Source: a virus (Duplodnaviria; Heunggongvirae; Uroviricota; Caudoviricetes). Taken from it: DNA of 9,567 bases. The notes below the pieces were generated by a model. That model had not been told where the DNA came from. It did not search any database and was given only the letters and a program-made list of their open reading frames with translations. The DNA lies in IMG/VR virus record IMGVR_UViG_2579778660_000003. One strand, 5' to 3'. Positions 2,833-6,835 of this stretch are shown here, in pieces. Position 1 is the first letter of the stretch. The number at the start of each line of letters is the position of its first letter. A program made the translations under genes and the position numbers.

Positions 2833-3429
2833 TTAATTCGAGACTATTGTACTTCTTATACAAGCAACCACTTCAATATCAGAAAATGCACATTCAAAGC
2901 TATTCTCTGCTGTTGTAATTTTAATCATTCCTTTAGGAAGCCTTGTGATTTTTCGAATGGAATAGGTTCCGTCGATATTGATTAACCAGTTTCCATCAAG
3001 TACTTCAGAAAATTTTTGATCACAAATGTATGTGACGAGTCCATCCTGAACAACAATTGGTGATGAAAGGTTTGCAGGAAGAAATGATGAATCGAAGACA
3101 TATGAACCGTCTTCAATCATTTTGCCTGCGGCAAGGCGAAACTTAACAAGCTCTTCTGTAGCTGCTGTCAGCGAGCTTTGCTTAAGGCCTTGTCCGGTAG
3201 TTAACCATTTGAGGGAGGTTCCTGTTTCAAGAGCACATTGGATTATCCAGTCAGCAGGAAATGTATCCCGCAAATACCTGTTCGCTAGTGTGCTTTTTGA
3301 TACTTCCAAGTGATCAGCTAAAGCCTGTCGTGTCGTAAAGCCATAGGCTTCGACTAATCGCTCAATCGCAGCCTTACCACCTTTATTGGGATTTATTTTG
3401 ATCTCACTTGGGTACTTTGATGTTGACAT
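2833..3429 (-). CDS. cI: 186-type CI immunity repressor (198 aa)
   Basis: ORF with ATG at 3429-3427 and TAA at 2835-2833. The N-terminal region ERLVEAYGFTTRQALADHLEVSKSTLANRY...CALETGTSLKWLTTGQG matches the phage 186 CI family HTH region as I recall it. It is divergent from the apl/cII operon, as in 186. Confidence 0.85.
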   Translation of the reverse strand: MSTSKYPSEIKINPNKGGKAAIERLVEAYGFTTRQALADHLEVSKSTLANRYLRDTFPADWIIQCALETGTSLKWLTTGQGLKQSSLTAATEELVKFRLAAGKMIEDGSYVFDSSFLPANLSSPIVVQDGLVTYICDQKFSEVLDGNWLINIDGTYSIRKITRLPKGMIKITTAENSFECAFSDIEVVACIRSTIVSN

Positions 3430-3474
3430 ATCTCTTTTGCGATCCTAGTATCAGTTTTGTACCCAATTGGGTAC
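3423..3474 (+). promoter_or_regulatory. Putative rightward lytic promoter (TTGACA-17 bp-TAGTAT) followed by a 16-bp perfect palindromic operator GTACCCAATTGGGTAC
   Basis: Seen in sequence: TTGACA at 3423-3428 (overlapping the cI start codon), a 17-nt spacer, TAGTAT at 3446-3451, then the palindrome at 3459-3474. The 10-mer TTGGGTACTT recurs at 3408-3417 and 3467-3476. Assignment as pR and a CI operator is inference from position in the cI/apl switch region. Confidence 0.4.
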
Positions 3475-5118: not shown

Positions 5119-5352
5119 ATGCGTAATATTGAAACCCTCACGACTAAAACCGGACCGGATGACGCAGGGCTTAATATTTTACTGACAGAGGCTCGTCTGG
5201 AAGAACGCCGGGCAAGGGCTGAAGCAATGGCTGCTCGCCTTGATAGCCTGGCGTGTCATATCTCATCCCGCCAGCTAAACCACGTGGAAGCGGCAGAACT
5301 GCTGCGCGTGACTGCTGAAGCAATCCAGAACGAAGCGCAGGAGATCCACTAA
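5119..5352 (+). CDS. Hypothetical early-operon protein (77 aa)
   Basis: ATG at 5119 with AGGAG at 5106-5110 (8-nt spacer). The track ORF begins 6 nt earlier at a TTG. The stop TAA overlaps the next start (TAATG). Confidence 0.6.
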   Translation: MRNIETLTTKTGPDDAGLNILLTEARLEERRARAEAMAARLDSLACHISSRQLNHVEAAELLRVTAEAIQNEAQEIH

Positions 5353-5579
5353 TGGCTGATGCAATGGATCTCGTACAGCAGCGCGTTGAAGAAGAACGCC
5401 AGCGCCATATCCGTGCAGCCCGTGCCAAATCACCGGGCGTGTCACGCGTACTTTGCATTGAATGTGAAGCGCCAATTCCGCCAGCACGACGCCGCGCCAT
5501 TCCGGGAGTGCAGCTTTGCATTACCTGTCAGGAAATCGCAGAACTGAAAGGCAAACATTACAACGGAGGTGCTGTATGA
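5352..5579 (+). CDS. TraR/DksA-family C4 zinc-finger protein (75 aa)
   Basis: ATG at 5352 overlapping the upstream stop. Contains CIECEAPIPPARRRAIPGVQLCITCQE (CxxC-17-CxxC), typical of phage TraR/DksA-like proteins in P2-family early operons. Confidence 0.75.
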   Translation: MADAMDLVQQRVEEERQRHIRAARAKSPGVSRVLCIECEAPIPPARRRAIPGVQLCITCQEIAELKGKHYNGGAV

Positions 5580-6403
5580 GCACCATCCTGAAATGGGCGG
5601 GAAATAAAACCGCCATTATGCCAGAACTGAAAAAATACCTTCCTGCTGGCCCGCGACTGGTTGAACCTTTCGCGGGTTCCTGTGCTGTGATGATGGAAAC
5701 GGATTATCCCAGCTATCTGGTTGCGGATATTAATTCTGATTTAATCAACCTCTATAAAAAGGTTGCCGCTGATTGTGAATCGTTTATATCTCGCGCCAGA
5801 GTTTTATTTGAGATCGCAAACAGGGAGGTGGCTTATTACAACATAAGGCAGGAGTTTAACTGCTCAACTGAAATTACTGATTTCATGAAAGCGGTATATT
5901 TCCTGTATCTCAATCGTCACGGTTACCGTGGTTTATGTCGCTATAACAAGAGCGGGCATTTCAACATTCCCTACGGTAATTATAAAAATCCGTATTTCCC
6001 TGAAAAAGAACTTCGCACATTTGCAGAAAAAGCCCAACGAGCAACGTTTATCTGCGCCAGCTTTGATGAAACGCTGGCGATGTTGAAGGCGGGAGATGTG
6101 GTGTATTGCGATCCGCCATATGACGGTACGTTTTCCGGCTATGCCAACCGGGGCAACGCTGAACGGGCAGCGAAAATGCAGTGGGAACGTCTGCAACGCG
6201 GCGTTGCGTCATTCTCGCTACAACTGGCGGAAGGGCGGGCAGATCTCTACACGGAAATGCCTGTGAAGGTCAGTGGTTTTAAACAGCCGATAGATGATGC
6301 GGAATGGACCATTACGACTCTGACACATACCGTCAGCCCGGATAACGGTTTTACGACCAGTCTGGAGCTTGAAGTGAGGATTGATGATTTCGAAATGGAA
6401 TGA
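5576..6403 (+). CDS. D12-class N6-adenine DNA methyltransferase (Dam-like, 275 aa); the C-terminal ~90 aa are atypical and may be a deletion fusion
   Basis: ATG at 5576 with GGAGG at 5565-5569, overlapping the upstream stop (ATGA). The N-terminus ILKWAGNK...[11 protein letters not shown] and the catalytic DPPY (about residue 177-180) are the Dam family signature. After DPPY the sequence (…[34 protein letters not shown]) does not resemble the Dam C-terminus I remember. Confidence 0.75.
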
Positions 6404-6429
6404 TTCTTCGCAATGGAGAACTTTTAAGT

Positions 6430-6456
6430 TTGCAAAATGGAATAATGCGGTATCAT
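6430..6456 (+). promoter_or_regulatory. Possible sigma70-type promoter for ogr
   Basis: TTGCAA at 6430-6435 and TATCAT at 6451-6456, but the spacer is only 15 nt (alternative -10 CATTAT at 6454-6459 with an 18-nt spacer). Weak, position-based. Confidence 0.25.
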
Positions 6457-6493
6457 TATTGTGAATTTAGCAAAAATGGGGAGAACTCGAAAA

Positions 6494-6712
6494 ATGATGA
6501 TTTGCCCACTGTGTGGAAGTGCCGCCCATACTCGCAGCAGTTTTCAGGTATCTTCATTGACCAAAGAGCGTTACAACCAGTGCCAGAATATTAACTGCAG
6601 CCATACTTTTGTAACCCATGAAACTTTTGTTCGTTCGATTGCAACGCCAAAAGAGTCAAATCCGGTTCAGCCGCATCCAATGAAATCAGGACAGGTGGCG
6701 CTCTCTCTTTGA
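6494..6712 (+). CDS. ogr: Ogr/Delta-family zinc-finger late-gene transcription activator (72 aa)
   Basis: ATG at 6494 with GGGGAG at 6478-6483. The translation MMICPLCGSAAHTRSSFQVSSLTKERYNQCQNINCSHTFVTHETFVRSIATPKE...PHPMKSGQ matches P2 Ogr (CPLC...HQCQNVNCS...) as I recall it. Stop TGA at 6710-6712, immediately before the right repeat. Confidence 0.85.
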   Translation: MMICPLCGSAAHTRSSFQVSSLTKERYNQCQNINCSHTFVTHETFVRSIATPKESNPVQPHPMKSGQVALSL

Positions 6713-6734: not shown

Positions 6735-6798
6735 TCGTTAAAAAACAGTGCTTCTAACGTCATGATTTTAAACGGCATAAATTTCAGGCAACAAAAAA

Positions 6799-6835
6799 CC
6801 CATCAACCTTGAACCGAAATGGCGGGGGTGATGGG
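6799..6835 (-). terminator. Possible terminator hairpin downstream of ybjL
   Basis: CCCATCA (6799-6805) and TGATGGG (6829-6835) can pair, and on the - strand the stem is followed by a U-run (plus-strand AAAAAA at 6793-6798). The loop is long (23 nt), so this is weak. Confidence 0.25.

Follow-up and report, generated by a model that had tools for sequence, protein, structure and literature searches.

A deletion-generated chimera of dam and tail gene D in a defective P2-like prophage of Escherichia coli

Remnants of P2-like prophages in which the late-gene activator, ogr, survives behind a 3' fragment of the tail gene D are known in E. coli. The cryptic prophage PR-X of strain K-12 is made up of yegZ and ogrK, and its D fragment, like the one described below, is located directly upstream of an intact ogr. 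The P2-like remnant of E. coli B and BL21(DE3) occupies the ybjL site and has retained ogr together with a 402 bp 3' fragment of D that was produced by an internal deletion. In BL21(DE3) (NZ_CP081489.1, 894889-895529; L005, 8624-9264), the final 402 nt of D are directly preceded by a truncated invertase (recombinase) gene and followed by an intact ogr, and this remnant constitutes a second case, in addition to the present one, of a deletion that ended inside D and spared ogr.

Intact relatives of the Elveevirus type include the prophage of E. coli TKEC21-59 (NZ_CP092452.1), Klebsiella phage 4LV2017 (NC_047818) and the Escherichia phages Cartapus and vB_EcoM-813R9. Their genes are arranged in the order int, (cargo), CI, early operon, TraR-like gene, dam, A...D, ogr and attR. 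In these genomes dam (285 aa) and D (366 aa) are both full length, and replication, cargo, head, lysis and tail genes fill the roughly 27 kb that lie between them. The part of this interval from gene A to the portal gene is the known variable or defence hotspot of P2, and its cargo differs from one intact relative to the next: it contains a retron St85 effector and polymerase in Klebsiella phage 4LV2017 (10905-12888; L003/L002) and DprA-like and DUF2971 genes in the TKEC21-59 prophage (L008, 23976-26918); the region is lost in the DNA described here.

In alpha-group methyltransferases, motifs V-VIII are found in the region after the DPPY motif, which also supplies the rest of the central sheet, and in the E. 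coli enzyme, EcoDam, the region between motif III and DPPY recognises GATC. The solved structure of the R-type pyocin baseplate (6U5H) includes, as chain C, a homologue of P2 gpD, the product of gene D, and the intact gpD of the parental prophage aligned with this protein over residues 15-354 (E=1e-54).

The DNA analysed here, a stretch of 9,567 nt referred to as the window, is a piece of the E. coli chromosome, and its right end (ybjL, ybjM, grxA) shares 99.9% identity with many E. coli genomes. It is identical to L006 (contig JJMD01000057.1, assembly GCA_000627855.1) over all 9,567 nt. Between rcdA and ybjL, a site that is occupied by intact prophages in many genomes, it contains a P2-like (Peduoviridae, Elveevirus-type) defective prophage. 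The gene order is that of the intact relatives, and the arms are 95-99.9% identical to theirs. The dam'–'D open reading frame extends from 5576 to 6403 on the plus strand and encodes a protein of 275 residues. A sequence-only reading of this DNA had proposed that the protein is a Dam-like methyltransferase, the last ~90 residues of which may have been derived from the 3' end of D by a deletion. The motifs that it quoted, AGNK, FAGSCAV and DPPY, and the C-terminal sequence were all found. The Dam identity of the N-terminus was upheld, although this part comprises 188-189 residues rather than the estimated ~180, and the tail does originate from D, its size being 86-87 residues. The open reading frame had been placed about 90 bp upstream of ogr and, with the stop codon ending at 6403 and ogr starting at 6494, the gap is indeed 90 bp.

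The chimera consists of a dam-derived segment (5576-6142, plus strand), which corresponds to dam nt 1-567 and Dam residues 1-188/189 with DPPY at residues 179-182, and a D-derived segment (6143-6403, plus strand), which corresponds to D nt 841-1101, encoding gpD residues 281-366 and the stop codon. When phage and E. coli DNA sequences were compared with the window, those matching the left, dam part stopped at 6142 without exception, and those matching the right, D and ogr part began at 6139-6140 in every case, the abrupt switch in identity that the sequence-only reading had suggested looking for. The best breakpoint was tied after 6138 through 6142, against the E. coli TKEC21-59 prophage and Klebsiella phage 4LV2017 alike, because the four nucleotides CTAT at the junction (6139-6142), a microhomology, occur in both parental genes.

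The intact prophage of E. coli TKEC21-59, which is inserted at the rcdA-ybjL site as well, was the best match for both arms (99.8% and 99.9%) and was used as the reference. The chimeric open reading frame was identical to this prophage at 826 of 828 nt. Both mismatches, at 5735 and 6037, were in the dam part, which has 99.6% identity to the dam gene of intact prophages, while the tail was identical to the 3' end of D at all 261 positions. Compared with the reference, 27,057 bp were missing, and dam and D had the same codon phase at the junction, so the fusion that had been suspected to be in frame, or nearly so, is in frame. The deleted DNA comprised the last 291 nt of dam, 32 whole annotated genes and the first 840 nt of D. 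Gene A of P2 holds the replication origin; the genes that were lost encode the replication endonuclease A, DinI-like, DUF2971 and DprA-like proteins, the portal, terminase, capsid and lysis proteins, and the baseplate, fibre, sheath, tube, tape-measure and U proteins, which agrees with the earlier proposal that the deletion had removed the replication and structural genes. The arms, which extend past ogr for another 2.9 kb of chromosome, differed from the reference at 11 of 6142 and 20 of 3425 nt with no indels, and all of the retained open reading frames were full length, so the deletion was recent.

A single illegitimate recombination across CTAT would account for the loss of the 27,057 bp, and microhomology-mediated slippage or end-joining is the probable mechanism. 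The chimeric frame is open through the end of D because the two break points share the same codon phase; translation initiated at the dam ATG would thus continue into the last 86 codons of D and terminate at the native D stop codon. We assign a probability of about 0.88 to the interpretation that the open reading frame is a chimera created by a deletion within a P2-like prophage, now defective, and that its product is most likely inactive and has no function of its own.

Profile searches divided the protein at the same place. The Pfam D12 N6-adenine methyltransferase domain covered residues 7-193 (E=5.7e-60) and ended at position 201 of the 253 positions of the profile. Residues 182-254 matched positions 234-302 of the 305 positions of Phage_GPD (E=1.5e-5) with a score of 24.8 bits, which is below the Pfam gathering score of 30.1 bits. 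In PHROGs, residues 1-189 matched a DNA methyltransferase (5e-84) and residues 188-275 matched phrog_12925, a tail protein (2e-48). Since the Phage_GPD score was sub-threshold, the assignment of the tail to D rests on the DNA identity and the PHROG match. A full-length gpD (PF05954, ~366 aa, above threshold) is not encoded by the chimera, which has the final 86 residues only. The separate alignment of the tail that had been recommended gave no significant match to the intact Dam C-terminus (BLASTP E=1.7) and a match to D that was 100% at the DNA level; an end-to-end alignment with phage Dam, the outcome that would have refuted the sequence-only reading, was not obtained.

The N-terminal 188 residues of the chimera are homologous throughout to EcoDam (PDB 2G1P, 4GOL and others), a methyltransferase of the D12 class or alpha-group, and include the FxGxG and DPPY motifs. 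Motif I of the D12 class (alpha-group, PF02086) is PFAGSCAV at residues 31-38, which corresponds, via the parental protein, to PFVGAGSV in EcoDam, and the catalytic motif IV, DPPY at residues 179-182, was invariant in the alignments. The target-recognition region between motifs III and IV (residues ~57-145) was also present, was collinear with EcoDam and had 99% identity to the intact phage Dam. The intact phage protein aligned with EcoDam residues 7-270 (E=3e-73). On this alignment the break in the chimera falls at EcoDam Y196, twelve residues past DPPY, and the equivalent of EcoDam residues 197-270 has been replaced. In an AlphaFold model of an intact homologue, which was of moderate quality (mean pLDDT 64; 68-87 in the 190-240 region), the segment past the breakpoint formed two helices (H196-211, H224-229) and three strands (E216-221, E234-241, E253-261), all of which are absent from the chimera. 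The chimera thus retains the AdoMet-binding motif I, the GATC-recognition region and DPPY, and loses the C-terminal third of the catalytic domain, that is, the region of motifs V-VIII with the last three strands of the sheet.

Because the motifs and strands that follow DPPY are lost, we infer that the chimera would be unable to fold into an active methyltransferase. Judged from the sequence and the model, the product is most likely catalytically dead and would probably be an unstable polypeptide. AlphaFold gives no measure of how stable a truncated protein is, and the alignment available for modelling the chimera wrongly pairs the C-terminus of Dam with the gpD tail. Of the 366 residues of gpD, only the 86 at the C-terminus are left, and this piece is not likely to form an independent folding unit; its counterpart in the pyocin protein, which has 329 residues, is roughly residues 250-323, and the remainder of that protein has no equivalent in the chimera. 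A sister chimera variant, P0004, has the substitution P132L at a position that is invariant across 27 intact Dams. This substitution may reflect relaxed constraint and was counted as support for the loss of function.

The rest of the remnant is well preserved. On the minus strand there are a P2-type integrase gene (1-1053), which is intact and encodes 350 aa, a cargo gene (1136-2812) encoding a 558 aa protein with DUF4041/SNIPE and T5orf172 domains that was classified by PADLOC as PD-Lambda-1 (E=4e-120), and an intact CI-type repressor gene (2833-3429). The PD-Lambda-1-type defence gene was spared by the deletion. In sister prophages at rcdA-ybjL (L009, L011), the position between integrase and CI is occupied by a small YdcA-like gene in place of the DUF4041/SNIPE gene, indicating that it is a variable cargo position. 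A strong promoter-like site, TTGACA-17-TAGTAT (3423-3451, plus strand), stands at the head of the early operon and is probably the early promoter, facing the CI gene. The operon, also on the plus strand, consists of a small gene in the Cox/Apl position, followed by CII-like, Fil, DUF5347, DUF2732 and TraR/DksA-like genes and then, as the last gene after the deletion, the chimera. The stop codon of the TraR/DksA-like zinc-finger gene (5352-5579, plus strand) overlaps the ATG of the chimera (ATGA, 5576-5579), an arrangement by which translational coupling is retained, and GGAGG lies 7 nt 5' of the start.

Downstream of the chimera, the native D-ogr intergenic region (6404-6493) is unchanged and includes a promoter-like site at 6429-6456. 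It is followed by an intact gene for an ogr/Delta-like late-gene activator of 72 aa (6494-6712, plus strand; PF04606). A candidate attR core, AACAAAAAACCCAT (6790-6803), has a matching left copy at L006 4338-4351, 87 nt before the start of the window, so that a 14-nt direct repeat flanks the remnant. As in PR-X, an intact ogr follows a 3' D fragment and the replication and morphogenetic genes are absent. The remnant is unable to replicate, to lyse the cell or to make particles, and it keeps int, CI, the early regulators, the PD-Lambda-1/SNIPE-type defence gene and ogr. The early operon would be repressed in a lysogen, and the chimera would be made only on derepression of this CI-controlled operon. 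The spacer that separates the chimera from ogr (6404-6493) showed no terminator-like site, so early-operon transcripts could now read into ogr; if such read-through occurs, expression of the late activator would be tied to derepression of the remnant.

Other variation was seen within dam itself. At dam nt ~517-521 (6092-6096), the window reads GGGAG where Klebsiella phage 4LV2017 reads GGGGG (L003, 2501-2505), the A interrupting the run of G residues. Many clusters of 224-aa Dam variants (P0034, P0037, P0038, P0043, P0049 and P0077) have in common a frameshift right after LKAG, at the G-run just upstream of DPPY, and the variant P0041 goes out of frame at the G-run and then returns to frame. 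These frameshifts may be the result of homopolymer slippage or of sequencing errors.

The chimera of the window type is rare. Its junction was found in none of 5,426 complete E. coli genomes, though 1,335 of them carry related dam or D sequence. It is represented by about 7 contigs, with recorded lengths of up to 716 kb, and by 4 protein accessions; one of the contigs, L007, differs from the window by 2 nt. In a clustering at 90% identity that comprises about 5.8 billion clusters, the exact protein is the sole member of its own. The window-type chimera is a lineage-specific accident.

One alternative, which we consider possible but unlikely, is that the deletion was not random but started from a site in dam (around nt 558-576) that is prone to breakage and gives rise to deletions extending to the right over different distances, the window being one outcome. 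The protein search found further in-frame Dam-gpD fusions in E. coli, each of which was named a Dam-family methyltransferase by its source. P0003 and P0004 (290 aa) join Dam residues 1-188 to gpD from residue 266, and P0003 was listed with 52 contigs and indexed in 98 blocks of the collection; a junction of the P0003 type was absent from the 5,426 complete genomes. P0002 (472 aa) joins Dam residues 1-252 to gpD from residue 147, and P0005 (456 aa), which was seen at the protein level only, joins Dam to about residue 219 (about nt 657) to gpD from about residue 116. At the DNA level, two fusions were located at the rcdA-ybjL site, one (L009, 8001-8873) with its junction after dam nt 566 and the microhomology TA, the other (L010, 8001-9419) with its junction after dam nt 756 and the microhomology GGGTAAA. 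L009 differed from the window at 35 of 566 dam positions, the first of them 23 nt from the junction, and the D differences began within about 10-27 nt. Since the two differ up to the junction on both arms, they are independent deletions. Descent of both types of fusion, that of the window and that of P0003, from a single event, for instance by way of a secondary 45-bp deletion, was considered and was excluded by the differences in the arms near the junction.

The left ends of five independent rearrangements known at the DNA level were at dam nt 558, 558, 566, 567 and 571, a span of 14 nt that begins at 6133 in the numbering of the window, and their right partners were all different: an invertase gene, the 3' end of gpA, D nt 795, D nt 841 and dam nt 662. 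A sixth, P0018, is broken near dam nt 576 at the protein level. Among these left ends are positions 6558 in L011, 6558 in L012 and 1820 in L013. About 6 of roughly 17 events thus fell within 18 nt of about 300 nt, in a sample that was small and drawn from a ranked hit list and in which some events were seen at the protein level only and may be frameshifts. Because of how this sample was drawn, the clustering, which could reflect either a hotspot or a sampling effect, is treated as unexplained rather than established.

Several observations argue against a break-prone site: 1) the fold of dam nt 480-660 as DNA was not significantly more stable than that of shuffled sequences (z=-1.7), and the sole solid stem was at the 5' end, about 60-85 nt upstream of the breakpoint cluster, 2) breaks across dam nt 520-700 were rare in complete genomes, where 1,224 of 1,226 carriers were contiguous and 2 were broken, and 3) the microhomologies at the junctions were short and ordinary (2-7 nt). 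CRISPR self-targeting was considered as a cause of the clustered endpoints and was not supported, as a search of 5,426 complete E. coli genomes with dam nt 520-700 at a permissive E-value gave no spacer-sized matches; 1227 of the 1229 matching records were full-length prophage dam. More doubtful still is the broader proposal that a preferred break site at dam nt ~558-576 and repeated rightward deletions, ranging from 90 bp to 27 kb, domesticate this P2-like prophage family and create Dam-gpD fusions again and again. If it were true, the window would be one case of a recurrent, site-biased domestication, in which the remnants are harmless and keep immunity, a defence gene and ogr. The independent fusions and the clustering of endpoints would matter only if confirmed by a systematic survey.

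The possibility that the chimera is a functional new protein kept by selection, be it an altered methylase, a non-catalytic protein that binds GATC or AdoMet, or a decoy whose C-terminal gpD piece would poison the baseplate assembly of superinfecting P2-like phages, is very unlikely. Its appeal lies in an open reading frame that is intact and in frame, with the native ribosome-binding site and translational coupling preserved, and in the independent Dam-gpD fusions of other E. coli lineages. P0003 has the same dam breakpoint and occurs in many assemblies, and two independent lineages with fusions of Dam residues 1-188 to the gpD C-terminus could be read as a sign of selection. However, one third of random deletions would be in frame, and protein calls with two domains arise from in-frame fusions only. 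Furthermore, the catalytic domain has lost three strands and two helices and gpD its N-terminal three-quarters, and the gene is part of a repressor-controlled operon. The window-type chimera is limited to a handful of near-identical genomes, with none among the 5,426 complete genomes, and P0004 is substituted at an invariant Dam position.

It is next to impossible that no deletion took place and that the protein, which the sources name simply DNA adenine methylase, is either a form of Dam whose C-terminus diverged naturally or the result of faulty assembly. A tail that is D to the last of its 261 nt and is followed by the native D-ogr spacer, with no similarity to the Dam C-terminus, is not a Dam variant, and an artefact of assembly is excluded by the parental overlap of 4 nt, far too short to mislead an assembler, and by the recurrence of the same junction in independent NCBI, ENA and Logan assemblies, among them the 716 kb contig.

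The protein deposited under 4 accessions as 'DNA adenine methylase / Dam family site-specific methyltransferase' is misannotated, for it consists of a truncated Dam and a piece of a tail protein. The entries need a flag that marks them as a pseudogene or a chimera, and the protein should not be counted as an orphan methylase in surveys of methylomes or defence systems. The locus also offers a datable instance of prophage decay, in which one deletion, apparently mediated by microhomology, took every replication, lysis and particle gene.

The sequence-only reading had pointed to a D fragment beside ogrK in K-12, and correctly so; this is yegZ of PR-X, which is directly upstream of ogrK and the product of which shares 64% identity with the chimera's tail. 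PR-X differs from the remnant in the window in that it is only about 630 bp long and lacks an integrase, a repressor and early genes, and its D fragment, an annotated pseudogene, is unfused and lies at another chromosomal site, next to cyaR. The remnant of E. coli B differs in that the left breakpoint is in the invertase gene, many tail and lysis genes remain, and the fragments are annotated as pseudogenes. The feature described here is ordinary prophage decay, of the same known kind as PR-X of K-12 and the remnant of E. coli B.
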